Source: Deltaproteobacteria bacterium
GTDB taxonomy: Bacteria; Desulfobacterota; Binatia; Bin18
Length of the DNA: 64,000 bases
Direction: 5' to 3'
Assembly: GCA_009692435.1 (NCBI GenBank)
Contig: SHZE01000001.1
Span: 13,243-77,242 of the forward strand
Shown here one piece after another: positions 1,777 to 46,712 of the stretch (its first letter is position 1; every line of letters begins with the position of its first letter). Both the position numbers and the translations under genes were made by a program. The notes under the pieces are model-generated. The model was not told the origin of the DNA. It did no database searches and was given only the letters and a program-made list of their open reading frames with translations.

Positions 1777-1940
1777 TGATCTCACTTCACTGCGCGGAGG
1801 AACGACCACCGTTCCTCCGCCCTGCTGCTCGTGTTGACGCCACATCGAGAGGTTTGTAGTGTACCCCGATGTGGCGTCATAACTCCTCCCCCGCAAAGAC
1901 CCTCAACACTGGCCAACCTCACGCTCGTCCTTCTGGCCAA

Positions 1941-3173
1941 ATGGGCCATGAGCGCGACCGTCACCAAGCAGAACTTCGTCCCCCCTGCCCTCATTACCCA
2001 GCCTGTCACGGCTGTCCTTTTCTTCAGTTTCCGTACCGAGAACAGTTGGCCAAGAAACAGGAGATTGTCGCTCGGGCTTTGCACGAGTATTCATCTCTGA
2101 CCTCTGTCGAAGTCCCGCTCCCCGTCCCTTCCGCCCGCCAGTTTGGCTATCGTGCACGGACCAAATTAGCGGTCCGCAAAGTCAAAGACAAAATTCTGAT
2201 CGGGCTCTACGTTCCCGAGTCCCATGCGGTGGTGGACATATCGGCCTGTCCGGTCCACCCGCAGCCGGTCAACCAGATCATTCAATTTCTCAAAGAGGCA
2301 ATTGAAAGGTTCGGCATCATTCCTTACGACGAGGAACATGACACCGGCCAGTTGCGCTATATCGATCTGCGCTACAGCTTCTGGCAACAGCAGGTGGTGC
2401 TGACCCTCGTCACCCGCCACATGCACTTTCCACAGGTCCGCGACCTGCTCCGCGTCCTCGAACGTCAGTTCCCATTTCTGATCGGTGTCGTCCAGAATAT
2501 CAACGACAAACCCGGCAACGTAATCTGGGGAGAGCGGTTTTCTCCGCTCCGGGGACGCGATGCGCTGTTGGAAAAGCTGGGCGAATTAAAAATGAGTATC
2601 CCCGTGGATGCCTTCTCCCAAGTGAACACGCAGGTCTCCCGCAAGCTGTATGAAAAGACCCTGGAATGGGCGGGATTGACTGGAAAAGAAATCGCCTTCG
2701 ATCTCTACTGTGGCATTGGTCCGATCTCACTCTTCCTCGCCTCTCAGGCGCAGTTAGTGATCGGGATTGATGACAACGTTGGCGCGATTAACACGGCCAA
2801 GCAGAACGCCCGCCGCAATGGCTACAATAATTGTCGCTTTTTTGCCGGGGATGCCGCCGAAAAACTTCGCGAGACCGCCATTTCGGTCGCTCATGTCGAT
2901 GTGATCGTCGCCAATCCACCCCGCAAAGGATTAAGTGTCGATGCTTTTGCCGCGATCCTCGCAACGAAAACACCGAAGATTATCTACATTTCCTGTGCCC
3001 CAGCCACTCTTGCCCGCGATCTTGATCGTTTTTCCGTTGAAGGGTATTTCGTGCAACGAGTGCAGCCCTTCGATATGTTTCCTCAGACCAGTAAAGTCGA
3101 GACCATTGCACTGCTCGAACGGACACCTCCTCTTGTTGTCTCACCTCTGACTTTTACACCGCTAGCGCAATAA
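1941..3173 (+). CDS. 23S rRNA (uracil-C5)-methyltransferase, RlmC/RlmD (RumA) family; start could instead be 1869
   Basis: N-terminal Cys cluster CPHYPACHGCPF (Fe-S site as in RlmC), SAM-methyltransferase fold, and the family signature motif VIVANPPRKG near the C-terminus. Confidence 0.7.
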   Translation: MGHERDRHQAELRPPCPHYPACHGCPFLQFPYREQLAKKQEIVARALHEYSSLTSVEVPLPVPSARQFGYRARTKLAVRKVKDKILIGLYVPESHAVVDISACPVHPQPVNQIIQFLKEAIERFGIIPYDEEHDTGQLRYIDLRYSFWQQQVVLTLVTRHMHFPQVRDLLRVLERQFPFLIGVVQNINDKPGNVIWGERFSPLRGRDALLEKLGELKMSIPVDAFSQVNTQVSRKLYEKTLEWAGLTGKEIAFDLYCGIGPISLFLASQAQLVIGIDDNVGAINTAKQNARRNGYNNCRFFAGDAAEKLRETAISVAHVDVIVANPPRKGLSVDAFAAILATKTPKIIYISCAPATLARDLDRFSVEGYFVQRVQPFDMFPQTSKVETIALLERTPPLVVSPLTFTPLAQ

Positions 3174-3208
3174 CGCTCGTCGCAGTCAGGAGGAAAGGAA
3201 CCTCACGC

Positions 3209-3955
3209 ATGGCGCTGACCTCTACGACCCTTTCGCCAGTAGCAACATCGTTGTTCCCCTCGGTTTGGTTACAGGCGAACGGATGGAACCATATCCCTCG
3301 CCTCATTCATGGATTCTCCCAGCGGATTGATGACCGGCACCTTGCGCTCGCCACGCTCAATGCGGAAACCCTTCCTCTCCACACGTTGAAACAGGTACAC
3401 GGAGACGACATTCTCATTGTCCACCAGGAAAGCGATACCAACGACCGGCCAGAGGCAGATGGCCTTATGAGTCGCGAGTCCGGCGTCCTCCTTGGTATCG
3501 CCACCGCGGATTGTGTTCCCGTGCTCATGGTTGCTCCTGAACATGGCCTCATTGCCGCTCTTCACGCCGGGTGGCGTGGAACACTCAAGGGAATCAGTCA
3601 GCGCGCGGTTACCATGCTCAATGACCGCTGGCGGATTAAGCCGGCAAGTGTCTGGGTTGCACTCGGTCCCTCTATTTCTCTCTGTTGTTACGAAGTTGGG
3701 CGCGATGTCGGAGAGGCCCTCCATGAACGCTGGCGCTCACAATCAGCCTGGCACCCTCACGGAACGGGAGACAAAGGCTTTCTTGATCTTCGTGCCGTCA
3801 ATCGTGCGCAATGTGAGGGCGTTGGAGTTCCCGCGGCACAGATTCAATCGGTCGGCCCATGTACCTTTTGCGCATCACCCGACTTTGCTTCATATCGCCG
3901 TGAAGGGGCTGGAGCTGGACGACAACTCAGTGTCATCGGTTGGCGGAAAGACTAA
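3209..3955 (+). CDS. pgeF: Peptidoglycan editing factor PgeF / YfiH (laccase-domain, DUF152) family
   Basis: Motifs QVHGDDILIV, ADCVPVLM, HAGWRGT and C..C..C are characteristic of the YfiH/PgeF family. Confidence 0.7.
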   Translation: MALTSTTLSPVATSLFPSVWLQANGWNHIPRLIHGFSQRIDDRHLALATLNAETLPLHTLKQVHGDDILIVHQESDTNDRPEADGLMSRESGVLLGIATADCVPVLMVAPEHGLIAALHAGWRGTLKGISQRAVTMLNDRWRIKPASVWVALGPSISLCCYEVGRDVGEALHERWRSQSAWHPHGTGDKGFLDLRAVNRAQCEGVGVPAAQIQSVGPCTFCASPDFASYRREGAGAGRQLSVIGWRKD

Positions 3956-7608: not shown

Positions 7609-8586
7609 ATGAACACGGTTGAAGTAGAAGCAGCGACAATTGAAGAAGCGATCGTGAACGCCCTAAAACAACTGCAGGTTGAGCGGGAGCGTGCCGAGAT
7701 CGAAGTCTTGGCGCAACCGACCAAGGGGTTTTTAGGTATTGGTGGTAAAAAAGCCCGTGTTCGTGCCACTCTCCGAGTGCCGTTATCCGCTCGCATACAA
7801 GAGCCTCCCCCTCCTCCAGTGGAACCACGGCGCCCCACGGAAGCCCAACGCCCGGCGGAACCGCAGCGGGCCGCGGAACCTCGCCGTCAGGCGGAACCTC
7901 AACGCTCGACTGAACCTCGACGGCCAGCAGAACCTCAACGCTCGATTGAACCCCAACACAGGGCAGATCGCCGACCCGTAGAATCCCGACGCCCGGTCGA
8001 ACCTCCACGCCCACGTCCACGACAAGAAGAACCAGCGGGCGAGGCATCATCAGATGCCATTCCTCAGCTCTCCCCGGAAATGAGAGAAAAAGCCTCCGCT
8101 ACCCTGAAAGACATCCTCCAGCGGATGAATACGGAAGCGCGCGTCGCCCTGGAAATACGCGATGGAGAAGCGCTCCTAACCGCCACCGCCACCGGGAACA
8201 CCCCGGAAGGCTTTCTCGTTGGTCATCGCGGACAAACGCTGGATGCCCTGGAATATCTGCTCAATAGCATCATAACCAAAAGCGATGAAACCGAGACTCG
8301 CGTGACGCTCGATATCGAAGGGTATCGGGAACGCCGCTGGAAAAGCTTAGAAAGCCTGGCGTTGCGATTAGGCGAACGAGCCAAGCGGCGGCGCAAGACC
8401 ATTACCCTCAGCCCCATGAGTCCCCGTGACCGTCGCGTGATCCATCTCACACTCCAAGAAGACCCACTCGTGACCACCAAAAGCATGGGACGCGGCTATT
8501 TTCGCCAAGTGACGATCGTGCCCGAAGAAGGCGCACGCCGCGAGCGCGTGCACGGAACTGAACGAGACACAAGCAGCGATTCGTAG
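7609..8586 (+). CDS. khpB: RNA-binding protein Jag/KhpB (Jag_N + KH + R3H), with an internal Pro/Arg/Glu-rich tandem-repeat linker
   Basis: Jag_N motif (EVEAATIEEAI, GFLGIGGKKARVRA) and C-terminal KH/R3H (RRVIHLTLQED), in the conserved yidC-jag-mnmE position. The central part carries (A/T)EPQR(S/A)xEPRRP repeats. Confidence 0.8.
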   Translation: MNTVEVEAATIEEAIVNALKQLQVERERAEIEVLAQPTKGFLGIGGKKARVRATLRVPLSARIQEPPPPPVEPRRPTEAQRPAEPQRAAEPRRQAEPQRSTEPRRPAEPQRSIEPQHRADRRPVESRRPVEPPRPRPRQEEPAGEASSDAIPQLSPEMREKASATLKDILQRMNTEARVALEIRDGEALLTATATGNTPEGFLVGHRGQTLDALEYLLNSIITKSDETETRVTLDIEGYRERRWKSLESLALRLGERAKRRRKTITLSPMSPRDRRVIHLTLQEDPLVTTKSMGRGYFRQVTIVPEEGARRERVHGTERDTSSDS

Positions 8587-8606
8587 TCGCGCGGGGCGTC
8601 TGGTTT

Positions 8607-8647
8607 GAGACTTGAGGTCTGAGGTTTTTTTACGTTTTACGTTTTGA
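8607..8647 (+). terminator. Post-jag terminator region: GAGACTTGAGGTCTGAGG hairpin, T7 tract, then a half ACGTTTT element
   Basis: agacttgaggtct stem-loop followed by ttttttt, then tacgttttacgttttga (one arm of the ACGTAAA palindromic family). Confidence 0.5.
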
Positions 8648-8659
8648 TTTCTTCCCCAC

Positions 8660-10048
8660 GTGTACGCCCATGACACAATCGCCGCGATTGCTACCCCTCC
8701 TGGTCACGGTGGAGTAGCGATCATTCGCATGAGCGGTCCCCACGCAGAGACCATCGCGCGCCAAGCGTTTCTCTTTTCCCAGCCACGCGAAACCTTGCAG
8801 TCTCATTATTGCTACCTCGGCCAGGTCCGCGACCCCGAGACCGGCCACTGCTTTGACCAAGCCTTGTTGGTCGCCATGCGCGCGCCGCACAGCTATACCG
8901 GGGAAGAGGTAGTCGAGATTCATTGTCATGGCGGACAGCTCCTCTCACACCGCGTCCTTGCGGTCATGCTTCGGCAAGGGGCGCGCATGGCCGAGCCTGG
9001 GGAATTCACCAAACGCGCGTTTCTCAATAATCGGCTCGACCTCTCGCAAGCAGAAGCGGTCCTGGACCTCATCCACGCCAAATCAAACCAGGGACTCAAC
9101 CTAGCGTGGGAACAACTCTCAGGTCGCTTGTCCGATGTCTGTATGACATTGCGCGAACGACTAGTTGGGCTGACGGCCTATATCGAAGCCTTTATCGACT
9201 TTCCCGACGAAGACCTACCCGAAAAAGCTCAGCACGAATTGGACGCCGAGATGAACGTCCTGGCAACCGACATCGCCACCTTGGCCGCGACATTTACCCA
9301 AGGAAAAATCTACCGCGAAGGGTGCCGGACGGTGATTGTGGGAAAGCCGAATGTGGGGAAGTCGAGCCTATTAAATCTGCTCTCAGGAACAGAACGCGCG
9401 ATTGTGACCTCTATCCCTGGCACAACACGGGACATTCTTGAAGAAACCGTGACCCTCAACGGGATTCCGCTGGTGATATGGGATACCGCCGGGCTGCGGG
9501 AAACCAGCGATGTCGTCGAACAAATAGGAGTGGAACGCGCGAAAGCTGGAATACAAGCGGCAGAGCTCGTGCTGGCGGTTTTTGATGCTTCACAACCTCT
9601 AGACGTGCAGGATGAAGCCGTGCTCTCGACCATCCAACAGAAAAGAACCATCCCGATTCTCAACAAAGTCGATTTACCCATGGTCGTGTCCGCAGCGGAT
9701 TTGCACCCGCAACCGCACCTGATGCCCCCGGTGTTGCTCTCAACCACCACAGGTGTTGGTCTTGAGGCACTAGGCAAAAGCGTCAGACACGCCCTTTTTA
9801 CCCAGGAATCAACACTCACGGAAAACGAACCAGGAGCAACCGTGCTCCGCGTCCGTCATCATGACGCGCTGATCAAAGCGGAAGAGATGCTTCGTCAGGC
9901 TCGGCAAAACTTGCACGGCGGGATTCCGCTTGATCTGCTCGCGGTTGATCTCCGTACCGCGCTCGATCATATTGGCGAGATCACCGGTCATGTAAACACA
10001 GAAGATATTCTCGATCGCGTCTTTCGCGATTTTTGTATCGGGAAGTAA
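8660..10048 (+). CDS. mnmE: tRNA modification GTPase MnmE
   Basis: N-terminus [16 protein letters not shown]-domain [12 protein letters not shown]...DTAG, C-terminal CIGK; GTG start. Confidence 0.9.
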
Positions 10049-10055
10049 GGAAGCT

Positions 10056-11918
10056 ATGGTCTACGATATTATTGTTGTCGGGGCTGGTCATGCTGGAATC
10101 GAAGCGGCTCTCGCCGCTGCCCGGCTAGGATGCCAGACGTTGATGCTCACTCTGAATTTGGACCACATCGGCCAGATGTCCTGTAACCCTGCTATTGGCG
10201 GGATTGGCAAAAGCCATTTAGTGCGAGAAATCGACGCCCTAGGTGGAGAAATGGCGAAGGCCATAGACGAAACCGGCATCCAGTTCCGCGTGCTCAATAT
10301 GCGGAAAGGACCGGCGGTGCGCGCGACTCGCGTACAAGCGGACAAAGCCCTCTATCGACAGCGCATGAAACGCGTGGTCGAAACCACGGACAATCTCACG
10401 CTCCGCCAGGGCAGTGTCGAACGGCTCCTCGTGGAGAACGACGAAGTGCGCGGAGTCGAGACGCAGATTGGTGAAATTTTTCTGGGGCGTAAAGTCATCT
10501 TGACGACGGGGACCTTTCTGAAAGGGCTCATCCATGTGGGCCTCAAGAACTACGCCGCCGGGCGGGCGGGCGACTTCGCGGTTGAAGGCTTGAGCGAACA
10601 TCTGCGCGCGTTGGGATTTCGTGTCGGGCGTCTGAAAACTGGTACCTGTCCACGGCTCGATAGTCGCACCATCGACTACAGTGTCGTTGCCCCTCAGCCT
10701 GGTGACGACCCACCGACTCCGTTGTCGTTCTCGACCGAAAAAATCACGCAATCGCAGATTCCTTGTCATCTGACTTATACCAATGCCAACACCCACCAGG
10801 CGATTCTGGAAGGGCTCGACCGGTCACCGTTATATTCCGGGCTCATTCAGGGGCGTGGACCTCGGTATTGTCCGTCGATTGAGGACAAAGTCGTTCGTTT
10901 TAAGGACAAGCTACGCCATCAGATTTTTCTTGAGCCCGAAGGACGCGACACCGTCGAAGTGTACCCCAATGGCCTGTCGACAAGTTTACCGCTCGATATT
11001 CAGCTCCAGATGGTCCGATCAATTACCGGCTTAGAGAAGGCGGAGATCATGCGCCCTGGCTATGCCATTGAGTATGATTATGCTGACCCAACGCAACTGC
11101 TCCCCACGCTCGAAACTAAGCTGGTACGCGGCCTCCACCACGCCGGACAAATTAACGGCACCACGGGCTATGAAGAAGCGGCGGCCCAAGGACTCATGGC
11201 GGCCATCAACGCGGTGTTAAGCCTACGGGGCGAGGAGCCACTGCTGTTCTCACGTAACCAAGCCTACATCGGGGTGCTGATCGACGATTTAGTGACCAAA
11301 GGGGTCGGTGGCGAGCCCTACCGTATGTTTACCTCACGAGCTGAACACCGGCTGTTACTGCGCGAAGACAACGCTGACCTCAGACTGCGAGCCTTCGGCT
11401 ATCGGATCGGCCTGGTGAACGAAGCGGACCACCACAAAACCGAAACCAAAAATCAGCGGATCGTCAGCGAAACGAAACGGCTAGAAGAAGTCGTGCTCAC
11501 CCCAACCGAAGCGACCAACGCGGTCTTAGCATCCTTTGCCAGCGCCGCGCTGAAAAGCCCAACCTCACTGGCACAGATTCTCCGCAGACCAGAAATTTCG
11601 TTCGACACGATTCAGCGGATATCGCCTTCTCCATCCGCGCTGCTACGAGAAGCAGCGACCGAGGTCGAGGTTGCCATCAAATACTCCGGCTATATCCGTC
11701 GCCAGGAAGAGGGAGTGGAGCGCATGCGTCATCTGGAAGAACTGCGCATTCCACACACGCTAGATTACACCAGGGTGTCGAGCTTATCGGCTGAGGTCCG
11801 CGAGAAGCTGACCTCCATACGCCCAGCATCCTTGGGGCAAGCAGCGCGGATTCCGGGGATGACACCCGCCGCGCTGTCGCTGTTAGCAATTCACCTCAAA
11901 CGAGTAAGCGTCGCGTAA
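10056..11918 (+). CDS. mnmG: tRNA uridine 5-carboxymethylaminomethyl modification enzyme MnmG (GidA)
   Basis: FAD-binding N-terminus [16 protein letters not shown] and full-length GidA conservation. Confidence 0.95.
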
Positions 11919-11961
11919 TTTGCCATGCTAGAACGGTTTGATTTTGTATGAAGAAATCGTC

Positions 11962-12003
11962 TACAGGTTCCCTCTCCCAGCCGGGAGAGGGTCAGAGTGA
12001 GGG
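11962..12003. repeat. 40-bp palindrome-containing dispersed element (copy 1): CCCTCTCCCAGCCGGGAGAGGG + TCAGAGTGAGGGGGAT
   Basis: Perfect 9-bp stem with 4-nt loop. A near-identical copy lies in inverted orientation at 46670-46712. Confidence 0.6.
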
Positions 12004-12064
12004 GGATCCGGAAAGCGCTCTATTCACTCATGCGAAAAACGCTATTGATCAGGAGCAGACACGG

Positions 12065-12730
12065 ATGCGGCGCGAAGGAGCGCAGCAGTTCGCCCTCACG
12101 CTCTCCGAGGAAACCGTCTCCCAGTTCGCCACGTTCATTGCCGAAATCCAGCGCTGGTCCACAATCGCCGACCTGCTCTCACAAACCGACCCGGCAACGC
12201 TGATTCGCAAACACATTCTCGATTCTCTCGCCTTACTCCCCTGGATTCCTCAGGGAAGCCGGGTGCTTGATCTCGGCAGTGGTGCGGGATTTCCTGGCCT
12301 CCCACTGGCCATCGCCGCCCCAGGTATCAGCGTCACGCTGATTGAAGCCCGACGCAAACGCGCCAATTTCCTCAAAGCCTCCATCCGGACACTCGGCCTG
12401 CGCAACGTCAACGCCTACGAAGGACGAGCGGAGCACTTGTCACACGAAGATACCCTACAGGCAGCCTTCGACATCATCGTGACCCGTGCCACGTGGAGCA
12501 TTGCCTTATTTCTCACTCTCGCACGCCCATTTCTGCGTCCAGACGGAATCGTCATGGCCATGAAAGGACCCAAACTCCAGCAAGAGCTTGAGGAACTGCG
12601 AGATGACATCGAAAAAACCGGCTTCTCACATACTGACACCAAGGCCTACACCCTGGCCGGAAACGCGCAGCGCAATATCGCTTTCTTTAGTCGGACATCT
12701 GTACCTAAGAAGCTGTTGATAAACCTTTAA
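12065..12730 (+). CDS. rsmG: 16S rRNA (guanine527-N7)-methyltransferase RsmG (GidB); start moved downstream of the repeat element
   Basis: SAM motif VLDLGSGAGFPGLPLAIA and conserved RsmG C-terminus. The ORF-track start at 11948 would translate the palindromic repeat; the Met at 12065 gives a typical ~220 aa RsmG. Confidence 0.75.
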   Translation: MRREGAQQFALTLSEETVSQFATFIAEIQRWSTIADLLSQTDPATLIRKHILDSLALLPWIPQGSRVLDLGSGAGFPGLPLAIAAPGISVTLIEARRKRANFLKASIRTLGLRNVNAYEGRAEHLSHEDTLQAAFDIIVTRATWSIALFLTLARPFLRPDGIVMAMKGPKLQQELEELRDDIEKTGFSHTDTKAYTLAGNAQRNIAFFSRTSVPKKLLINL

Positions 12731-12779
12731 AGGGAAAAAATTGCTTGTGATATTCAGCTTTTGAGAGCAACTTTCTCCC
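12729..12779 (+). terminator. Hairpin after rsmG (AGGGAAAAAATTGCT...AGCAACTTTCTCCCT)
   Basis: 15-bp imperfect inverted repeat with a 20-nt loop immediately after the rsmG stop. Confidence 0.35.
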
Positions 12780-12883
12780 TGCTTATGGCTTACCTTGCGT
12801 GGTCGGCTACTCCGCGTAATCCAGTAGAGAATGATTGACTTGAAAAACTCAGGTTGTTACGGTTCGCCCAGGAGGATCCCGTT

Positions 12884-36151: not shown

Positions 36152-36211
36152 GAAAAAAAGAATGTCGCTGCTCAGTATCACCCGTGGGTGAGAGACAGCA
36201 AGGAGTCGTTC

Positions 36212-36844
36212 ATGAAGCTCTACACCTTCCAAGTTGCTCCCAATCCGACAAAGGTTCGTCTTTACCTTGCAGAGAAAGTTGCGGGTGGAGCTGTGATCGA
36301 TATTCCCCAAGTCTCAGTCAATCTTCCCAAGGGAGAGCAGCGGAAACCGGAACACTTGGCTCGTAATCCGCTGGGCAGACTTCCAGTGTTGGAGCTGAAC
36401 GATGGGTCTTGTCTGACTGAGTCACTAACCATCATCGAATATCTGGAAGAGTGTTATCCACACCCAGCGATGATTGGACGGTCTCCGTTGGAGCGTGCCC
36501 GAGTCCGTGAGGTCGAGCGAATTGCCGAACTCGGTGTGTTGCTGCCCATTGGCCGCATTATTCATGCAACAAACTCTCCGATCGGGTTACCTCCGAATCC
36601 AGAGGTCGCTGCCCATTTTCGTAAGATACTGCCGGAGGGATTACGGCTGTTAGATACTCGACTCTCTGATGGGCGGCCATTTGTTGCAGGGGATTGTCCC
36701 ACTATTGCGGACTGTACGCTCGCGGCGGCCCTTCAGTTTGCCCGCTTTGGCAAGGTGGAGATTGATCCGACGTTCACGCACCTACTGCACTGGGATGCTC
36801 GCTATCGTGAGCGCGCAGCGGCGAAGTCGGCGCTGACGTTGTAG
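36212..36844 (+). CDS. Glutathione S-transferase
   Basis: GST N-terminal thioredoxin-like fold (MKLYTFQVAPNPTKVRLYLAEK, RNPLGRLPVLEL) and a C-terminal helical domain. Confidence 0.7.
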   Translation: MKLYTFQVAPNPTKVRLYLAEKVAGGAVIDIPQVSVNLPKGEQRKPEHLARNPLGRLPVLELNDGSCLTESLTIIEYLEECYPHPAMIGRSPLERARVREVERIAELGVLLPIGRIIHATNSPIGLPPNPEVAAHFRKILPEGLRLLDTRLSDGRPFVAGDCPTIADCTLAAALQFARFGKVEIDPTFTHLLHWDARYRERAAAKSALTL

Positions 36845-36882
36845 TGCTACGGACGTGTGGGGAGTCTGTACTGAGAAGAGGA

Positions 36883-36924
36883 TGCCCCCGGCGCGATTCG
36901 AACGCACGACCCAGGATTAGGAAT
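36883..36924 (-). repeat. Direct repeat of the 3' half of tRNA-Arg (anticodon loop to 3' end); putative att site of an integrated islet
   Basis: tgcccccggcgcgattcgaacgcacgacc(a)caggattaggaat is identical (one 1-nt indel) to 38974-39016, then the two sequences diverge. Confidence 0.7.
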
Positions 36925-37031
36925 ACGAATACCACATGAGAACCGTGTCTCTACGCTTTGAGTTTTGCGGCAAGTCCTTTCTTGAGCTTCATTCGATCAA
37001 GACGCCCAGCGTTGACAGCTCCTTGTATGAG

Positions 37032-37445
37032 CTAGGTCATTTCTTTCTCTGGAATTCGGGCGGTCTCCCCTTTTTCCGCGATAGTTCTGATGAGTGCTAT
37101 CAGTTTGGGGTCTGAAAGCTCAACAAGATCACGATGCCAACAGGTATTAGCCTCCTGGTCAGGGGTGTCCCCGACCGTTTGCTCAACCTTGATGCTGAGC
37201 GTCGTCAGCAGCGCTTCGTCAACGAGCGCATAATCGAAGTTCGAGAAAAAATCTCTTGTAGAGGCGAGAGCAATGACGACCTGTTCCAGGTTTGACCTGT
37301 CGTCCTCGATATACCAAACCGAGAGGGTTGAGTTCTCTGGCACAAAGTCTTCAAGGGGACCGTTCCGTATCTGATCATCCGTCGGAGAAGTCCCCATGAT
37401 CTCGTGCCATCTCCCCTTACGGATACTCCGTAGGAGAAACGGCAC
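37032..37445 (-). CDS. Hypothetical protein (islet gene 3 of 3)
   Basis: 137 aa, acidic, no recognisable motif; its 5' end overlaps the upstream gene by 29 nt. Confidence 0.4.
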   Translation of the reverse strand: MPFLLRSIRKGRWHEIMGTSPTDDQIRNGPLEDFVPENSTLSVWYIEDDRSNLEQVVIALASTRDFFSNFDYALVDEALLTTLSIKVEQTVGDTPDQEANTCWHRDLVELSDPKLIALIRTIAEKGETARIPEKEMT

Positions 37446-38112
37446 TACGGGTGCTCTCTAGTTGATAGTGTACTTGTTTTAAGTCTTCACGAAGCGAGGC
37501 ATACTTTTCGTGATCAATTGCCTGCCGCAGATAGGGAATTGCGTGTGGGTCATCAAGAGACGCTAGCCCTAGCGCTGCCCCGTCTCGCACCAACACCGAG
37601 GTGCTAAACAGGCTTCTTTCCAGCAACCACAAGCGATCATGATGGGACAAAGGATGATCCACACGACCAAGCCAACGTAGCGTTTCCGCTGCGACTTCTG
37701 CGTTAACGTTGTCGTTGACAGTCAAGGAAGTGATTACCGCCATTGCCGTCTTTCCGTACTGCCTTACCAGATGTACTAACTCCCTGGAGAAGTCGTTCTC
37801 CATCCCGTCCTCGAAAGTAAGGCTTCGTGCTTCCCGGAAAAGAGCCTTGAGAATTTTTCCCAATGGTTCCTCTTGGGTGATTATGTTTCCTGGTCTTTCT
37901 TGGGAGAATAGGTCGATTTCTTCTAGCAGTTCACGCTGGGTAGTCGTGTTGTCTTTACTCACGAGGCTCGTCCGAACAACCGTTAAATCCTCTTTTGAAT
38001 CTCCCGTGAGTATGAGGTAGTGAGCAGAGTCCCATACTCGTTGTGGCTTGTAAAAGCTGTGAACTGCCAAGTCCGTTCCTGCTGTTGAAGAAGGAACCAT
38101 GTCGGGTCTCAT
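37417..38112 (-). CDS. Hypothetical protein with C-terminal HEAT-like (PBS-lyase type) repeats (islet gene 2 of 3)
   Basis: Repeats of the form AAxALGxLxDPxAIPYLRQAI (AEVAAETLRWLGRVDHP; DGAALGLASLDDPHAIPYLRQAI); 4-nt ATGA overlap with the upstream gene. Confidence 0.4.
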   Translation of the reverse strand: MRPDMVPSSTAGTDLAVHSFYKPQRVWDSAHYLILTGDSKEDLTVVRTSLVSKDNTTTQRELLEEIDLFSQERPGNIITQEEPLGKILKALFREARSLTFEDGMENDFSRELVHLVRQYGKTAMAVITSLTVNDNVNAEVAAETLRWLGRVDHPLSHHDRLWLLERSLFSTSVLVRDGAALGLASLDDPHAIPYLRQAIDHEKYASLREDLKQVHYQLESTRSAVSPTEYP

Positions 38113-38894
38113 GGAATATCCCCTTCTCTAGCGATTTCCTGTCCGAGGGTCACTAACTCGTTAAAGATTTGGCCTAACTGATCTTGTGGCAAGTCCCCTG
38201 GAAAATCCGGGTGGGTGTTAATATCCAATTCTAATCGACAACCCGTACCCTTTTGATGAAACCTAAATCTCGCCTCTGGGACCAACGGAAGTTCAGCTAT
38301 TGCCCAAAAAGACACGGACCATTTGGAAAGACGATTGATCCTAAGTCCTGCAATCGCCGAACTGGAGTTTCTTGCACGATTGATTTGATAGAGAAAATCA
38401 CTTGCTCCTTCACCTTCAAGGGCGAGTTGTAGACCGGGAAGATACGCGGCAAGCTGTCGGTACCCGGTTTGCTGATCATCAACAGGCTGCCAGAGTGTTG
38501 CTCCGAAGGCTAGCCGTTGTGTAACAGGACACTCCCTAGATTCTAACCACCGGGTCATAAGCTGGGGAAAAATATTCAGTGATTCAGGGAGAGGGCCAAT
38601 CATTGTAGGTCCTCCTCTCTCTGACTCCGCATTGTCTGCTGCACGATAAAGCCAATCAACCCGAGACGGCTGAATGGTAAGGATTAGCCTTCTGTCCGCA
38701 AAAGAGCCCTCTTCGCGTCGTATTCCCAGTTTCCGCTGCGTCACTTGTGTTTCTGAAGGTTCCCCAACGAGAGACGTCCACCAGCGGGGTTCAGCCTCGA
38801 TTTGAGCAGCAGGACTGAGAAAGGCAGTCATCCTCATACTTTCCACTTCCCATGCGGAGAGTGGGGGGCGCGCTAGTGTTTTTATCGCAGTCAT
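38109..38894 (-). CDS. Hypothetical protein (islet gene 1 of 3)
   Basis: 261 aa; no ATPase, nuclease or other motif recognised. An AT-rich promoter-like region (TTGAGA-N17-TAAAAT on the - strand, about 38920-38950) lies between it and the tRNA. Confidence 0.4.
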   Translation of the reverse strand: MTAIKTLARPPLSAWEVESMRMTAFLSPAAQIEAEPRWWTSLVGEPSETQVTQRKLGIRREEGSFADRRLILTIQPSRVDWLYRAADNAESERGGPTMIGPLPESLNIFPQLMTRWLESRECPVTQRLAFGATLWQPVDDQQTGYRQLAAYLPGLQLALEGEGASDFLYQINRARNSSSAIAGLRINRLSKWSVSFWAIAELPLVPEARFRFHQKGTGCRLELDINTHPDFPGDLPQDQLGQIFNELVTLGQEIAREGDIP

Positions 38895-38973
38895 GTGTTT
38901 CTCGTGGAAACCGAAAATTAATAATTTACGAAATTTTATCGGTATTGGGGATAAGTCTCAACCTCGAAAAAAA

Positions 38974-39047
38974 TGCCCCCGGCGCGATTCGAACGCACGA
39001 CCACAGGATTAGGAATCCTGTGCTCTATCCACCTGAGCTACGGGGGC
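38974..39047 (-). tRNA. tRNA-Arg (anticodon CCT)
   Basis: Reverse complement folds as a 74-nt cloverleaf: acceptor stem GCCCCCG/CGGGGGC, D-arm GCTC..GAGC, anticodon arm CAGGA-TTCCTAA-TCCTG (anticodon CCU), T-arm GTGCG-TTCGAAT-CGCGC, discriminator A; CCA not encoded. Confidence 0.85.
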
Positions 39048-39121
39048 TCGAGGCGAGAGCTGGGGATACTATCCGAAAGGTGAGCACTCCGGCAAGCCTT
39101 GCCTCGCGCCGATAACGGCTT

Positions 39122-40066
39122 ATGCCCGCTCGCCGCACGCCAAACCTCCCACCACTACGAGGGGTGGGGAATAAATATCCACCCTTCGCGGTTGTAGAAA
39201 GCTCTCGCAAAATACTGAACATTTGGCATACGGGGCTGGTCGAAAGGCGACCTGCTCCTGGTGTCTCGTTTTGTCATTACTGCGGAACAGCGCATTGCGG
39301 AGGCATTATGCGGAGCGACATGGCGAAAGTAATTGTGGAACGCCCCCGTCGAGGTTGGGATGGTGGGCATAAAAAACCACGACAGGACCTGGACGCCTTA
39401 CCCACGAAGGTTGGGATGAAGAGAGAGATTATCGGAGAGAAATACCTCAACGAAAATCTTTCTCCGTTGCGCCGCTTTTTGGCTTCGCAAGTTGGGCGGC
39501 CGTGGAATAAAGTCTATGCGGATATCAGCGCATACTTGCGACCAGCCAATGTCGTCCAACAACATGTCCGGTCTCATCTGGAAGATTTTGTCGCCCTTAA
39601 TTTCTCCGTCAATAAAGATGGTGAACTCGAACAACCGCACAGATGGTGGTGGCGAGGAGGGCGACAATCCCTCTATGTCGATCCTCGTGATGGGATTCTC
39701 AAAGCGACCCTGAGCGAGAAAGATCGCAAACGCCGGGCACTGGCGCGGCGACAAGAGCTGGCACAAAAGAAGGCCAACGCGGACACCATTGTTGTCGATC
39801 GGATGCAGGAACTGCGACGCCTGAATGGCGTGTGGTTTTTCGTCGAGTATGCGCCACTGCCCTACCCAAGCCCGTTCCCACTCAGAAAGAAAGAGGGTGA
39901 AGTCAGTGCGGGAGCACCGAATGCGCTCACGCACTATGACGTTGTGCTTCGTGCTTACGTTGGCCCCAAGGATGCCTTTGCGTTCAAAGGGCGTTACGCG
40001 GTCAAGAAGCGACAATTGGCGAGTGACGAACTGCGGCGCTATCGCATCCAGAATGTCGCTCGATGA
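39122..40066 (+). CDS. Hypothetical basic protein (possible start at the internal Met about 39308)
   Basis: Arg/Lys-rich with CxxC..C motif CHYCGTAHCGG; no family recognised; lies between the tRNA and a transposase remnant. Confidence 0.3.
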   Translation: MPARRTPNLPPLRGVGNKYPPFAVVESSRKILNIWHTGLVERRPAPGVSFCHYCGTAHCGGIMRSDMAKVIVERPRRGWDGGHKKPRQDLDALPTKVGMKREIIGEKYLNENLSPLRRFLASQVGRPWNKVYADISAYLRPANVVQQHVRSHLEDFVALNFSVNKDGELEQPHRWWWRGGRQSLYVDPRDGILKATLSEKDRKRRALARRQELAQKKANADTIVVDRMQELRRLNGVWFFVEYAPLPYPSPFPLRKKEGEVSAGAPNALTHYDVVLRAYVGPKDAFAFKGRYAVKKRQLASDELRRYRIQNVAR

Positions 40067-40125: not shown

Positions 40126-40548
40126 TCATGTCATTGATCTGTGCTGAGTGACAAGCCGAGCGATAAACTTCGGACTGGTGCGGTTGAGATTGATCTTCTG
40201 TTCGCACATGGCCAGGTACTGGTGTAGATACTTCTTGTGAACCCCGCAAAAGGGGCGCTGGAAATTGCGCGCCGTGGGCCACAAGCCCTCAATGGTGTTG
40301 GTATAGACCTCCCGGATGCCCTCGCCATCCTCGCCCCGCGCCCATGCTTTCTGGCCGTGACACCCCGTGTGGGGAGTGCGCTTGCTTCGGGTGTCGCCCT
40401 GCCCCTCAGCAGTGTACCCCGTGGTAGCTCTGGGGGTGTCTTCATGTCCGTAGTGGTGCCACGTCTTGCCCTCGGTCTGGTGCCCCCGCGCACGCGCCAT
40501 TGCCCCCTGTAGCGCCCGACGGTCCCAACAATGGGAGAGGTCATACAA
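40126..40548 (-). mobile_element. IS1595-family (ISXO2-like) transposase, C-terminal fragment only (remnant)
   Basis: C-terminal motif YTNTIEGLWPTARNFQRPFCGVHKKYLHQYLAMCEQKINLNR matches the IS1595 DDE-transposase C-terminus (HTNTIEGFWS...H..S.KHL..Y..EF.FR.N.R). The N-terminal ~150 aa and any terminal inverted repeats are missing. Confidence 0.6.
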
Positions 40549-42661: not shown

Positions 42662-43756
42662 ATGAAAGCAGCAGTATTGTACGAACTAAAAACCCCATTA
42701 AAAGTCGAGGATGTCGATCTGGATAATCCGAAGAGTGGTGAGGTCCGCGTCAAAGTGGTCGCCAACGGGGTGTGCCACAGTGACTACTCCGTCATTCATG
42801 GTGTATTACGTTCGCCGTTGCCGGTCGTGCCTGGGCACGAGGGAGCCGGGATTGTCGAAGAAATCGGACCTGGGGTCACAATGGTTAAACCTGGCGATCA
42901 CGTCGTGTTATCGTTCGCCCCCTACTGCGGCCATTGCTTTTACTGCTCGATCGGGAGCCCGGTGCTGTGCGACAACATGCGCATGACGATGGGAAAAGGG
43001 ACGCTCCTTGATGGCACTTGCCGCCTCAAGAAGAACGGCAAGCCGATTCATCACATGGCGGGACTGTCTAGTTTCGCCCAGTATGCCGTGGTCGCGGAAT
43101 CGTCCTGCATCAAAATCGCCAACGACGTACCGCTGGAAAAAGCCTGTTTGGTGGGCTGTGCGGTAATGACCGGCGTGGGCGCGGCCATCAATACCGCCAA
43201 GGTGCAACCTGGCACGAGCTGTGTGGTCATTGGCTGCGGTGGCGTCGGGCTCAACACGATTCAAGGCTGCGCGCTGGCCGGCGCGGCGACAATCATCGGC
43301 GTCGATCTCATGGACAGCAAACTGGAGTACGCGAAACAATTTGGCGCGACGCATACGATCAATCCGAGCAAACAAGATTTAGTAAAGACTGTGCGGAGTC
43401 TCACCGAAGGACGCGGCGCCGATTACGCCTTTGAGGTGATTGGTCTTGGCAAAACCATTGAGCAAGCCTACGCCTGCTCGCGCCAAGGTGGGACGACCAT
43501 CGTGGTGGGCGCGCCGTCACGCGAGGACACGGTGACGATTCCGGCGTCGAGTCTGTTGACGGAAAAGATCATCAAGGGCTCGGTGTATGGCTCCTGCCAT
43601 CCACACGTGGACATGCCGCGACTGATTGATCTGTACATGAAGAAGAAACTCAAGATCGACGAACTCGTGTCGCGGACGTACTCGCTTGATGAAGTCAACA
43701 TCGCGATGACGGCGCTCGAAAAAGGCGAAGTCGCGCGGAGCGTGGTGGTAATGTAG
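42662..43756 (+). CDS. Zinc-dependent alcohol dehydrogenase (class III-like)
   Basis: GVCHSD catalytic-Zn motif, structural-Zn Cys cluster C..C..C..C, and Rossmann motif GCGGVG. Confidence 0.85.
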   Translation: MKAAVLYELKTPLKVEDVDLDNPKSGEVRVKVVANGVCHSDYSVIHGVLRSPLPVVPGHEGAGIVEEIGPGVTMVKPGDHVVLSFAPYCGHCFYCSIGSPVLCDNMRMTMGKGTLLDGTCRLKKNGKPIHHMAGLSSFAQYAVVAESSCIKIANDVPLEKACLVGCAVMTGVGAAINTAKVQPGTSCVVIGCGGVGLNTIQGCALAGAATIIGVDLMDSKLEYAKQFGATHTINPSKQDLVKTVRSLTEGRGADYAFEVIGLGKTIEQAYACSRQGGTTIVVGAPSREDTVTIPASSLLTEKIIKGSVYGSCHPHVDMPRLIDLYMKKKLKIDELVSRTYSLDEVNIAMTALEKGEVARSVVVM

Positions 43757-43908
43757 GCGGACGCGCCGCACCGGGCCGTCGGCGGTATGAGCAGAGGAAA
43801 ATTTCTACCAATAGACAGAACCGTCTCTTGGTAGAGCCTCTCTCTACGCGGACCATCAGCAGTTGGCCATTTTACATAAAGTGAACGGCAACGTTCAATA
43901 GGGCAACT

Positions 43909-45111
43909 ATGTTCGAAACCCGCATTTTTGAACAGATTCGCGAATATTGGATCACCGATCAAAACCGGCGGGGGACCCGAAAACAATCGATTCCATCGTT
44001 ACAAGATTTCGTCACGCTGATAGAGACCGCCTTCATTGTCAGTCTTAAAAGGGAAGAAGAGCGCTTTCCAAAATTCTCCGTCGTGCTGCTAGCAGAAAAA
44101 GACAAAGAGAAAGAACAGGAGTCTTCAGGTTTCAGGCAAGAAATCCTGATCTTGGATAGAAGACTTTCCTTTAGTCCTGACTCTCTGGCGAAACTCTCAC
44201 CTGCATGCGACCCGCAGACAGGTGCCTTCATTGTTTCCCCACCAGAGGATAGTTCAGGGAACTATGAAATTTGGGGCCTCATGTTTTTTGGTCCGGTGAC
44301 CAATCGATTCAACGAAATACCTATTTCCGACGAATTCATTACCTCTCGCCCAGATGTGCTCACAGTTACAGTGGTCTCACTCGGGTCTCTGGTAGTCAGC
44401 AGAGGCAATAGTCAGATCGGGCGTTTCGTTCTTGGTAACTTTAGTCCGGCAACTCCAACGCCTTTTGTGTCGCAAGCGATGGGCGAGTTTATGATCGCGT
44501 CAATCAGGAATAGCCAGGGATATCAGAGGTATGGAAATTTATATTGGCACATTTATCGAGATGCCTTAGAGCATTTGTTGCTGGAGGCCGGAGCCAGAGG
44601 ACATGGCGGAACTATAATTGTGATACCGGGAAACAAAGTGACCGAATGCAAGTCGAGTTTTCAAGCCAGGTATTCTCTACAAACCACACTGCGAATTATA
44701 GAGTTGATTGAGCAGACTCTTGCGTTACCGCACCCGTGTGATTTTTCTCGTTATCTTTCCTATAATCGTGCGACTATGGGCCGCTTGAATTTTTTGGCTC
44801 AGTTAGTTTGCGTGGATGGAGCCTTACTTCTTTCGGACCAGTTTGAGCCTATTGCTTTCGGGACAACACTAACGGCACAAGCGTGGCAAGGCGGTGTTGT
44901 TGTTGGGCCGGACAGTTTTAGTAGTGGAGGTCAAGAGTTTAATCTGTCGAGGCTCGGAACTCGCCACAATTCCGCGGCGAATTTCGTCGGCGCGTTTCCA
45001 TATTGTTACGGCTTCGTCTTATCACAAGATGGACCTGTTCGGGGGTTCATTAGGAGGGATGAAAACACACTGTATTGCTGGCCGGATTGTACAGTGTCCA
45101 TGTTCATATGA
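43909..45111 (+). CDS. Divergent DAC (DisA_N, diadenylate-cyclase fold) domain protein with an unknown ~200-aa N-terminal domain; lies in a low-GC islet
   Basis: The C-terminal half aligns to the DisA/CdaA DAC domain: GHGGTIIVIPG ~ (K)IGALIVFE; VDGALLLS ~ HDGAVII; LGTRHNSAANFV ~ LGTRHRAAL; FVLSQDGPVRGF ~ VVSEETGIISL. The canonical HDGA and RHR motifs are altered to VDGA and RHN. Local GC (~48%) is well below the ~60% flanks. Confidence 0.5.
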   Translation: MFETRIFEQIREYWITDQNRRGTRKQSIPSLQDFVTLIETAFIVSLKREEERFPKFSVVLLAEKDKEKEQESSGFRQEILILDRRLSFSPDSLAKLSPACDPQTGAFIVSPPEDSSGNYEIWGLMFFGPVTNRFNEIPISDEFITSRPDVLTVTVVSLGSLVVSRGNSQIGRFVLGNFSPATPTPFVSQAMGEFMIASIRNSQGYQRYGNLYWHIYRDALEHLLLEAGARGHGGTIIVIPGNKVTECKSSFQARYSLQTTLRIIELIEQTLALPHPCDFSRYLSYNRATMGRLNFLAQLVCVDGALLLSDQFEPIAFGTTLTAQAWQGGVVVGPDSFSSGGQEFNLSRLGTRHNSAANFVGAFPYCYGFVLSQDGPVRGFIRRDENTLYCWPDCTVSMFI

Positions 45112-45266
45112 TGAACAGGCGTTATTTCAATAGGACGCAGTCGGAATCCAACTTCCCAATTCATTGCACCGTATTACCGTCCAGTGGAGGTTCCTGCTTA
45201 ACCCGGACGGATACGGTTCGAGCAAACGATCTTGACGGCAACCGATAAGCCGACGACGGGAAATGC

Positions 45267-45536
45267 ATGACAAGGGTTCAAAGAATCCGGCTCAAGATCA
45301 TTGATCGGGACTATTATCTTTCCTCTCATGCGGAAGATGAGATGCTGGACGATGGATTGGAGCGGGGCGATGTCGAGAACGCCATATTGAAGGGACGCGT
45401 TCAGAAAAAATTATCTAAAGATGCGCGGGGCACTCGTTATCGCATCGAAGGTCCAACAAAAGATGGCCGGCTGATCCATGTAGTTTGTCGATTTCAGGAA
45501 GATGGTAGTCTCATTGTGGTTACAGATACGCGCTAA
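45267..45536 (+). CDS. DUF4258-family protein (putative toxin of a TA pair)
   Basis: 89 aa; motif DYYLSSHAEDEMLDDGLERGDVENAIL resembles the DUF4258 core; paired with a downstream zinc-finger gene. Confidence 0.45.
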   Translation: MTRVQRIRLKIIDRDYYLSSHAEDEMLDDGLERGDVENAILKGRVQKKLSKDARGTRYRIEGPTKDGRLIHVVCRFQEDGSLIVVTDTR

Positions 45537-45546
45537 CGGAGGAAAC

Positions 45547-45767
45547 ATGACGTGCGAATTTTGCGGAGGCGAGACAAGAAAAAGAAAGTTAAGCGACAAC
45601 ATTGGCTTCAGGGAAAGCTCTATATCGTCGAGAATGTTGAAGCCGAGGTCTGTCCGCAGTGCGGAGAACGATACTTCCACGCAACGACGCTGGACGCAAT
45701 TGACCAGTATTTGCTAGCTGACCATCACATCAAAGAGCAAATTCACGTCGAGGTCGTCAGCTTGTAG
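45547..45767 (+). pseudogene. YgiT/MqsA-type zinc-finger protein (putative antitoxin), disrupted by a 1-nt frameshift in an A-rich tract
   Basis: Frame 1 gives MTCEFCGGETRKRK and frame 0 continues VKRQHWLQGKLYIVENVEAEVCPQCGERYFHATTLDAIDQYL, together matching the TIGR03831 pattern CxxCGG...VCxxCGExY. The frames switch inside gacaagaaaaagaaagtt near 45585; adding one A restores the protein. Confidence 0.5.
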
Positions 45768-45840
45768 GATGCCAGAACGCGTAAGCAATGGGGCTTCATC
45801 TGAAAAATCTTACGCTAGACAAAACTAGGAGAATAAACCC

Positions 45841-46638
45841 ATGCTTCAACAAGCCATAGATTTTCGCGAGGAAAGCGAAGCGCTCTTCGCGCTCCTTGAT
45901 CCGTTGACAGATCAGGACTGGGAGCGGAAAACGCAGTTCAAAGAGTGGACCATCAACGACGTGATTGCCCATCTCCACTTTGGCAACTACCTCGCTGACT
46001 TGTCATTGCAAGACAGCGATGCCTTCGTGGAGTTTCTCCGTCGTTGGGGGGAAGACCGCAAACAACGGGGGAATAGAGCGGCAACTGACGCCTGGCTCAA
46101 TGGCATGAAAAATCGTGCTCTGTTGCAGCACTGGCGCGAATTCTATCTGGAGATGACACCGCGATTCATTGTCGCCGACCCGAAAAAGCGCGTCAAATGG
46201 GCGGGTCCTGATATGAGCGTCCGTTCCAGTATCACCGCTCGGCTCATGGAAACCTGGGCGCACGGGCAAGCGGTATACGACCTGCTTGGCCACGTCCGTC
46301 ATGAGGAAGACCGCATCCAAAACATCGCCGTCTTGGGGGTCAATACCTTTGGCTGGACGTTTACGAACCGGGGAGTCGCTGTACCAACAGACCCGCCTTA
46401 CCTCCGGCTCACCGCACCATCAGGGACAATCTGGGAGTGGAATCCCCCTGCTCAACAAGGGAATCGGGTTGAGGGAAACGCGGTCGAGTTCTGTCAAGTC
46501 GTGACCCAGGTCAGAAATATCGCCGATACCACACTGCAAGTGACTGGGGCAACGGCCACCACGTGGATGTCGATTGCCCAGTGTTTTGCTGGTCCGCCGG
46601 AAAATCCGCCAGCACCAGGCAAACGATTTCGGCAATAA
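45841..46638 (+). CDS. DinB/MDMPI-like (maleylpyruvate isomerase N-terminal domain family) metal-binding protein
   Basis: N-terminal four-helix DinB_2/MDMPI_N-like region with WTINDVIAHL and ETWAHGQAV His motifs; ~265 aa. Confidence 0.45.
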   Translation: MLQQAIDFREESEALFALLDPLTDQDWERKTQFKEWTINDVIAHLHFGNYLADLSLQDSDAFVEFLRRWGEDRKQRGNRAATDAWLNGMKNRALLQHWREFYLEMTPRFIVADPKKRVKWAGPDMSVRSSITARLMETWAHGQAVYDLLGHVRHEEDRIQNIAVLGVNTFGWTFTNRGVAVPTDPPYLRLTAPSGTIWEWNPPAQQGNRVEGNAVEFCQVVTQVRNIADTTLQVTGATATTWMSIAQCFAGPPENPPAPGKRFRQ

Positions 46639-46669
46639 ATAGGGAAAAGGAAGTGGTTATTTCAATCCC

Positions 46670-46712
46670 CCTCACCCTAGCCCTCTCCCAGCCGGGAGAG
46701 GGAATTGCGGAC
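46670..46712. repeat. 40-bp palindrome-containing dispersed element (copy 2, inverted relative to copy 1)
   Basis: ATCCCCCTCACCCTAGCCCTCTCCCAGCCGGGAGAGGGAA is the reverse complement of 11962-12003 with 3 mismatches. Confidence 0.6.

Follow-up and report, generated by a model that had tools for sequence, protein, structure and literature searches.

A 64,000-nt stretch of a Deltaproteobacteria bacterium assembly (Binatia, Bin18; GCA_009692435.1, contig SHZE01000001.1, positions 13,243 to 77,242), hereafter the window, contains a gene for tRNA-Arg(CCT) that is accompanied, about 2 kb away, by a displaced copy of its own 3' half, and the two enclose an islet of three overlapping genes, here named A, B, and C. 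The three genes probably represent a tripartite toxin-antitoxin-like module, carried on a mini-island that has no integrase, resembles a cis-mobilizable element (CIME), and is lodged in the 3' end of the tRNA gene. An earlier note on this DNA described the islet as cargo without assigning it a function, and comparative anatomy now refines that description by placing it among toxin-antitoxin-like modules. The evidence that carries this reading is observed directly, namely the anatomy of the islet, the boundaries of the cassette within it, the conservation of the genes, the swapping of their partners, and the recurrence of flanking repeats around other members of the family.

The argument begins with gene A, the constant first gene of the module. 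A survey that took one genome per species gave 80 loci with A, spanning Chloroflexota, Cyanobacteria, Acidobacteriota, Nitrospirota, Planctomycetota, several proteobacterial classes, and others, with a patchy distribution over more than ten phyla and unrelated neighbors. At about 55 of the 80 loci, A, B, and C occur together, with their order unchanged and their coupling similar, so that the co-occurrence of the triad in other genomes, which the earlier note had proposed to check, is confirmed. About 25 of the 80 follow another plan: A, usually with the same 4-nt overlap, precedes two proteins unrelated to B and C, and these alternative position-2 and position-3 proteins form clusters that co-vary with each other. 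Where Pfam recognizes the last gene of an alternative pair, it is a classical toxin of the PemK/MazF (8e-17), RES (4.2e-9), HEPN (2.2e-5), or PIN (about 3e-4) type, and A also heads several pairs of unknown type. In a crude neighbor-joining tree of A the partner types are scattered among the B-C-linked A proteins, which points to repeated swapping, and the B-C pair is also found without A, in a KSB1 bacterium (L172/L173, 5001-6091), beside divergently oriented TIR, CHAT, and TumE genes. Since A is constant, toxin-type pairs are swapped as co-varying units, and B-C can stand alone, the modules have the architecture of a toxin-antitoxin system with a constant third component. With the partner swapping as the observed part and the functions of the individual proteins as the part that we infer from it, A-B-C would be a new tripartite family of this kind.

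The position-2 proteins, which would be the antitoxins or adaptors of the different modules, show one compositional trait in their N-terminal 120 residues, where TD is the most over-represented of the 400 dipeptides (31 occurrences vs 15.1 expected, z 4.4). It is present in 24 of 37 position-2 cluster representatives, with 12.4 expected, and often lies in S/T-rich stretches like SSTAGTD.

Regarding the proteins of the window, A has a two-lobed alpha+beta fold with invariant Arg and Trp residues, and its homologues, found in more than ten phyla, number at least 599. Neither A nor C has a match in Pfam, NCBIfam, or PADLOC, in agreement with the earlier statement that no motif could be recognized in them, and a profile search of both against PDB sequences gave nothing meaningful. 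B is different: it matches HEAT_2 (PF13646) over residues 137-210 with an E of 3e-6 and 27.9 bits against a gathering cut-off of 27.7, and HEAT_PBS with an E of 0.0015, which upholds the HEAT-like (PBS-lyase type) repeats that had been noticed at the end of the middle protein. Most B homologues hold a precomputed PF13646 annotation, and PADLOC-DB v2.0.0 returns for B weak HEAT-ARM and PtuA noise alone (E 0.003-0.04).

Gene C belongs to a family of 2,710 representatives at 50% clustering, whose members are about 164 aa long. In the window, the third gene had been read as a whole of 137 aa, and this reading does not hold, because an in-frame TAG ends it prematurely and the conserved frame runs on, giving an ancestral length of 164 codons. 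The premature stop suggests that the putative toxin gene may be in the process of inactivation here. The sole family match of C is phrog_10743 of PHROGs, of unknown function (E 8.6e-8); for A, PHROGs returned nothing. The predicted model of C bears a weak, distant resemblance to toxins with the ADP-ribosyltransferase (ART) fold, on which account we lean toward an ART-like fold, and NAD+-dependent chemistry is possible. Residues R6, S42, Y72, H104, and E109 are invariant or nearly so, and are candidates for an H-Y-E or R-S-E set. Searches for such a relationship by other means were negative: none of 29 members of the C family matched an ART family of Pfam (RES, DarT, Tpt1, ART, and others) at E up to 10, the C profile gave a null result against a RES toxin by hhalign, and Foldseek of C against PDB returned nothing.

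The second line of evidence is the tRNA gene and its displaced half. ARAGORN reports tRNA-Arg(CCT) as the sole tRNA of the window, and Rfam finds no RNA family other than RF00005 in the interval 36500-39400; together with the repeat search, they agree with the earlier description of an intact tRNA gene with a duplicate of its 3' half. The two copies are exact over 29 nt (36883-36911 and 38974-39002), and beyond a 1-nt deletion in the distal copy 13 nt more match (caggattaggaat). With up to 3 mismatches allowed, the 29-mer has just these 2 matches in 64 kb, and 0 in 100 shuffles; a chance repeat was rejected for this reason. The duplicate extends from the anticodon loop, with the anticodon itself, as far as the discriminator base; this stretch is one of the classical sublocations at which integrases cross over in tRNA genes. 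The repeat has the anatomy expected of an insertion into the 3' half of the tRNA gene, and a tyrosine integrase may have made the insertion and later been lost.

The other side of the tRNA carries a 314-aa orphan open reading frame (ORF; 39122-40066) without a family match, and a weak IS1595-like remnant on the minus strand (40126-40548). The latter had been listed earlier as a transposase remnant, and retains that status with reserve: the similarity covers 45 C-terminal residues at E 1.5e-4, and its 21.7 bits compare with a cut-off of 75. Neither is shared with the related locus L012, so the DNA is variable on both sides of tRNA-Arg(CCT).

The islet contains the promoter-like site and the three genes: A and B overlap by 4 nt, B and C by 29 nt, and the ORF list, Pfam, and NCBIfam give no integrase-sized ORF between the repeats, only A, B, and C, as had been described earlier for an integrase-free 2.05 kb with three overlapping minus-strand genes. 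Its GC content of 48-52% is below the 54-58% of the flanks. Elsewhere in the window, at 43750-46000, GC drops to 0.47-0.49 from about 0.55 around it, and this may be another foreign segment. The promoter proposed earlier upstream of A, TTGAGA-17-TAAAAT, is the single such site in the region; shuffles give a mean of 1.3, so its count is not above chance, and its hexamers and spacing are kept in five homologous cassettes, including those of L012, L008, L001, and L011. No conserved operator-like palindrome was found in the promoter region, where one 9-nt palindrome (38912-38930) lies at a place in which the aligned cassettes differ from one another. The possibility of an integron cassette was rejected, as no attC-like element occurs in the 26 nt after C. 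The coordinates of all these features are collected in the table.

Table. Features of the tRNA-Arg(CCT) islet and its flanks, in window coordinates
Feature	Position	Strand	Basis
Glutathione S-transferase (GST) gene, flanking host gene and synteny anchor	36188..36844	+	Pfam GST_N, GST_C; syntenic in L012, L092
Distal attR-like copy, anticodon loop to 3' end, 1-nt deletion, non-functional displaced half	36883-36924	-	Repeat alignment
Islet, 2,049 bp: promoter and three genes, no recombinase	36925..38973	-	ORF list, GC dip, homology to L008/L001
In-frame continuation of C, 26 conserved codons and stop (36953-36951), ancestral C-terminus	36951..37031	-	Translation LIQGAVNAGRLDRMKLKKGLAAKLKA*, aligned with 164-aa homologues
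Gene C as read now, 137 aa, ended by in-frame TAG (37034-37032)	37032..37445	-	ORF list
Gene B, 231 aa, variable N-terminal region and conserved HEAT-repeat domain of about 140 aa	37417..38112	-	HEAT_2; alignment of 50 homologues
Gene A, 261 aa, constant first gene of the module family	38109..38894	-	ORF list
TTGAGA-17-TAAAAT promoter-like site, some 39 nt before the start codon (ATG) of A	38933..38961	-	Consensus scan
Proximal attL-like repeat copy, 3' part of tRNA-Arg(CCT)	38974-39016	-	Repeat alignment
Intact tRNA-Arg(CCT) gene	38974-39047	-	ARAGORN; Rfam RF00005, 65.6 bits

The boundaries of the cassette emerge from loci where it stands in other surroundings. A soil metagenome contig (L008) holds it at 88% DNA identity, with the homology confined to window positions 36935-38968, flanks unrelated to those of the window, and no tRNA; in L001, where it adjoins a type I restriction-modification (R-M) system, the identity is 71% and the homology covers window 36951-38969. 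In both, homology begins about 5 nt from the tRNA and stops 10-26 nt from the distal copy.

The same place in related genomes gives a complementary picture. The related metagenome-assembled genome (MAG) L012 has the same GST-islet-tRNA arrangement at 86% identity, with the distal repeat eroded beyond recognition, and its homology with the window ends exactly at the tRNA 5' end (39047). In L012, the region beyond the tRNA has a 47-nt stretch (384-430) that matches an unrelated part of the window (46667-46711) at 87% identity and may be a short dispersed repeat. The insertion is old enough to be common to two MAGs. In L092, a relative with 82% identity over the GST gene, the displaced tRNA half is kept, with 3 substitutions, along with the first 5 nt beyond it, and the cargo that follows (1912-3651) is not the triad but an RNA ligase (PF09414, 1.9e-34) with two unknown ORFs. 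L092 and L008, the latter with the triad in another place, are contigs of one and the same metagenome. All three relatives found have an occupied site, and more distant GST loci are not syntenic. From the different cargo of L012 and L092, and from the presence of the cassette in L008 and L001, it follows that the site is variable among relatives and that the cassette exists elsewhere. The confined homology and the alternative cargo support the earlier proposal of an islet, which appears to be a discrete foreign unit.

The third line of evidence is that the configuration of the window is not a one-off. When the 1 kb upstream of the module was compared with the 1 kb downstream at 75 other loci, direct repeats around a bare module, each with E<0.01, were found at 10 of them, against about 0.75 expected by chance. 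The enclosed islets measure 2.15-3.0 kb and hold the three genes alone, with no integrase. Several of the repeats derive from tRNA genes: a complete 79-nt tRNA-Val(GAC) in L039, the 3' end of tRNA-Arg(ACG) in L057, the 3' end of tRNA-Leu in L077, and the 3' part of tRNA-Arg(TCG) in L023. The latter locus (8579-12403) has four further partial copies, two on each side of the module (9274-9325, 9721-9792, 11941-11978, and 12358-12403), with A-B-C between the second and the third, an arrangement suggestive of several mini-islets that have accreted in tandem at a single tRNA. Other repeats are of a different nature. L020, L028, and L069 have repeats of 19-29 nt, L017 has a weak 22-nt match (E 0.003) that may be due to chance, and L040 has duplicated parts of protein-coding genes of 65 and 84 nt. 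In L090, a 371-nt duplicate that is 97.6% identical (9402-9772 and 12504-12874) lies within ORFs on both sides of a RES-type A-module, and is more suggestive of Campbell-type homologous integration than of a short att core. L002, L012, L039, L057, L067, and L087 have a tRNA gene, in the orientation of the module, no more than 400 nt before it, and in L058 and L060 a tRNA gene lies just downstream; a tRNA-Val repeat was looked for downstream of the module in L002, and none was found. Given the bare-module pattern at 10 of the 75 other loci, simple one-off decay is not the sole reading of the window. Candidate origins of such minimal units are deletion down to an addiction module that cannot itself be deleted, mobilization by a foreign integrase, and recombination between the repeats.

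With these observations in hand, a working scheme can be proposed. The whole cargo of the islet is one cassette, in which a putative sigma70-type promoter of its own precedes three genes coupled in translation. C would be the toxin, a small protein with a fold distantly like that of ART enzymes, which may use NAD+. B would act as the cognate antitoxin, or as an adaptor, and its HEAT-repeat domain would sequester C and so neutralize it. A would be a constant accessory partner (a chaperone, a regulator, or a trigger) and, because it heads modules ending in MazF, RES, HEPN, and PIN, has as its most likely target the position-2 protein or the control of the operon. An addictive module of this type would resist deletion, which could explain its persistence between the repeats, and it might be carried along, repeats included, by the integrases of other elements or by inter-repeat recombination. 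With a premature stop in its toxin gene, the copy in the window may be decaying.

Several results weigh against this scheme. A has no informative structural neighbor, and no DNA-binding or chaperone signature. The PIN matches of the alternative pairs fall just under the Pfam gathering score, and a Gibbs search for a shared motif in the position-2 proteins found none (log-likelihood ratio 252.6 vs 245 ± 6 in shuffles). Neither a cognate integrase nor a parent integrative and conjugative element (ICE) or integrative and mobilizable element (IME) was identified. The comparison of the tRNA-Arg locus among relatives, which the earlier note had recommended, revealed different cargo and no empty tRNA site: a metagenome scan with the GST gene gave just occupied or non-syntenic loci, and an exact-sequence look-up of the GST protein returned no record. 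Relatives of A and C turned up neither among 50,697 phages and 72,556 plasmids, searched by tblastn, nor in pattern scans of IMG/VR; for a toxin-antitoxin family this absence is unusual, and the collections under-sample the taxa involved.

The alternatives differ from this scheme either in the role of the genes or in the nature of the islet. As for the role, the triad may be a dedicated abortive-infection system against phages, in which A would be the sensor of a phage cue, B a relay or a restraint, and C the effector, with addiction being incidental; the proposal overlaps with that of a toxin-antitoxin module and differs mainly in biological role and in making A a sensor. Effector-swapping architectures are typical of defence systems, one copy of the module lies at the end of a phage-type gene run (Gam, BppU_N), and others lie next to defence-type genes, such as the type I R-M system of L001, the TIR and CHAT genes at the B-C pair of L172, and, in L003 (2660-9863), a cluster directly upstream of the triad that has a SNF2/ResIII-family helicase, a faint methyltransferase, and DUF499, along with an IS66 transposase and a serine recombinase. 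The wider census is less favorable. The 146 ORFs that immediately neighbor the modules are mostly housekeeping genes and include two integrases; about 4-6 are defence-like (two type I specificity subunits, two MADS components assigned by PADLOC as mad5 and mad6, and two PD-T4-6-type kinases), and no defence-island enrichment is seen among them. These few neighbors, the lack of PADLOC matches for A and C, and their absence from the phage and plasmid collections also give little support to the defence context suggested in the earlier note, and we regard a dedicated anti-phage role as rather unlikely.

As for the islet, it could be all that deletion has left of a larger integrative element, be it a prophage, an ICE, or an IME, and no longer mobilizable, in which case its recurrence elsewhere would reflect repeated decay around a module that resists deletion. 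The missing integrase, the decay of the distal copy (an indel here, erosion in L012), the nonsense codon in the toxin gene, the occupied site in all three relatives found, and the tandem accretion in L023 speak for this proposal. It sits less well with the eleven independent cases that hold only a promoter and three genes between repeats, or with the homology to L008 and L001, which in non-tRNA contexts breaks within about 10 nt of the functional unit; a small unit that is itself mobile would account for both more readily, and mere decay is a doubtful account. A more radical proposal is that the A-headed cassettes are autonomous minimal integrative elements of about 2 kb each, a class so far unrecognized, with A supplying or recruiting recombination into the 3' ends of tRNA and protein genes, duplicating the target, and with the interchangeable antitoxin-toxin pair enforcing retention. 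This is improbable, as the flanking repeats are unrelated in sequence and range from 19 to 371 nt, which is unfit for one site-specific enzyme, 65 of the 75 A loci have no repeat, and at meaningful scores A resembles neither a recombinase nor an HUH family. Finally, the triad could be a set of ordinary core or housekeeping genes beside a coincidental partial duplication of the tRNA. That L012, a related MAG, has the triad in the corresponding position speaks for this, yet the patchy distribution across phyla with unrelated neighbors, the other cargo at the site in L092, the GC dip over the islet, the cassette in other contexts at 88% identity, and a repeat far beyond chance leave this last reading largely refuted and very improbable.

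If the tripartite toxin-antitoxin-like module is accepted, its implications are of two kinds. For toxin-antitoxin biology, it would add a large family in which two of the three proteins have no coverage in Pfam, NCBIfam, or PADLOC, a HEAT-repeat antitoxin, and, in A, a new constant third component that would serve as a platform combining with MazF, RES, HEPN, PIN, and a new ART-like toxin. A literature search for a described family matching the module gave no match; members of the family come for the most part from uncultured lineages of soil and groundwater, a possible reason for its having escaped description. For the biology of genomic islands, a bare module that is free of recombinases and set between duplicated 3' ends of its target bears on how very small tRNA-gene islands arise and spread, and the same pattern bears on whether addiction modules survive the decay of integrated elements.

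Among known systems, the island can be compared with CIMEs, which are defined as retaining attL and attR while integration and transfer genes are absent (PMC5704250). The islet of the window agrees with this definition in its attL-like and attR-like copies of the tRNA 3' part and in the absence of integration and transfer genes, and the tandem arrays at one tRNA in L023 are likewise reminiscent of CIMEs and tRNA islands. It departs from them in being just 2 kb long and made of a single operon, with no parent ICE or IME or cognate integrase identified; in addition, the repeats around some related islets are duplicated stretches of protein-coding genes that reach 371 nt. In the same way, it shares with the tRNA islands of tyrosine integrases the direct repeat of the tRNA 3' part, but has no integrase inside.

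The module itself recalls type II toxin-antitoxin systems in its small adjacent genes with 4- and 29-nt overlaps behind one upstream promoter-like site, as well as in the patchy distribution of the A-modules, the mobility of the cassette between contexts, and the variable neighborhoods. C itself has no match in Pfam and resembles the ART fold weakly; the equivalent position in other A-modules is taken by MazF, RES, HEPN, or PIN. As regards C, the closest known systems include those with ART-fold toxins (Xre-RES/ParST/MbcTA and DarTG) and the ART-fold polymorphic toxins (Tse2, and Rhs and contact-dependent inhibition (CDI) tips).

The known third components of toxin-antitoxin systems have been listed (PMC8832971), and three groups of systems deserve comparison. 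The Panacea protein PanA (DUF4065) is one conserved family partnered with many unrelated toxin domains (PMC8832971), and A resembles it in this respect; PanA is, however, itself the antitoxin of two-gene loci, whereas A is a separate third gene with a variable protein between it and the toxin, and the two have no sequence relation. In omega-epsilon-zeta and paaR-paaA-parE, as here, a constant or regulatory gene comes first, the antitoxin and the toxin follow, and the operon has its own promoter; unlike their first genes, A is a protein of 260 aa without a helix-turn-helix, ribbon-helix-helix, or known DNA-binding domain, and there is no conserved operator-like palindrome. In the toxin-antitoxin-chaperone (TAC) systems, where a SecB-like chaperone accompanies HigBA, MqsRA, or HicAB, the chaperone is the last gene, whereas A is the first and has no similarity to SecB in sequence or fold, and in place of a chaperone-addiction segment the position-2 proteins offer just the TD-dipeptide enrichment. 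Nevertheless, the TAC systems likewise have three linked small genes and a constant component with different co-varying pairs, and the position-2 proteins described here have extra variable segments that could be a docking region; by analogy, TAC would be the closest functional analogue of the A-B-C module, with omega-epsilon-zeta and paaR-paaA-parE next closest.

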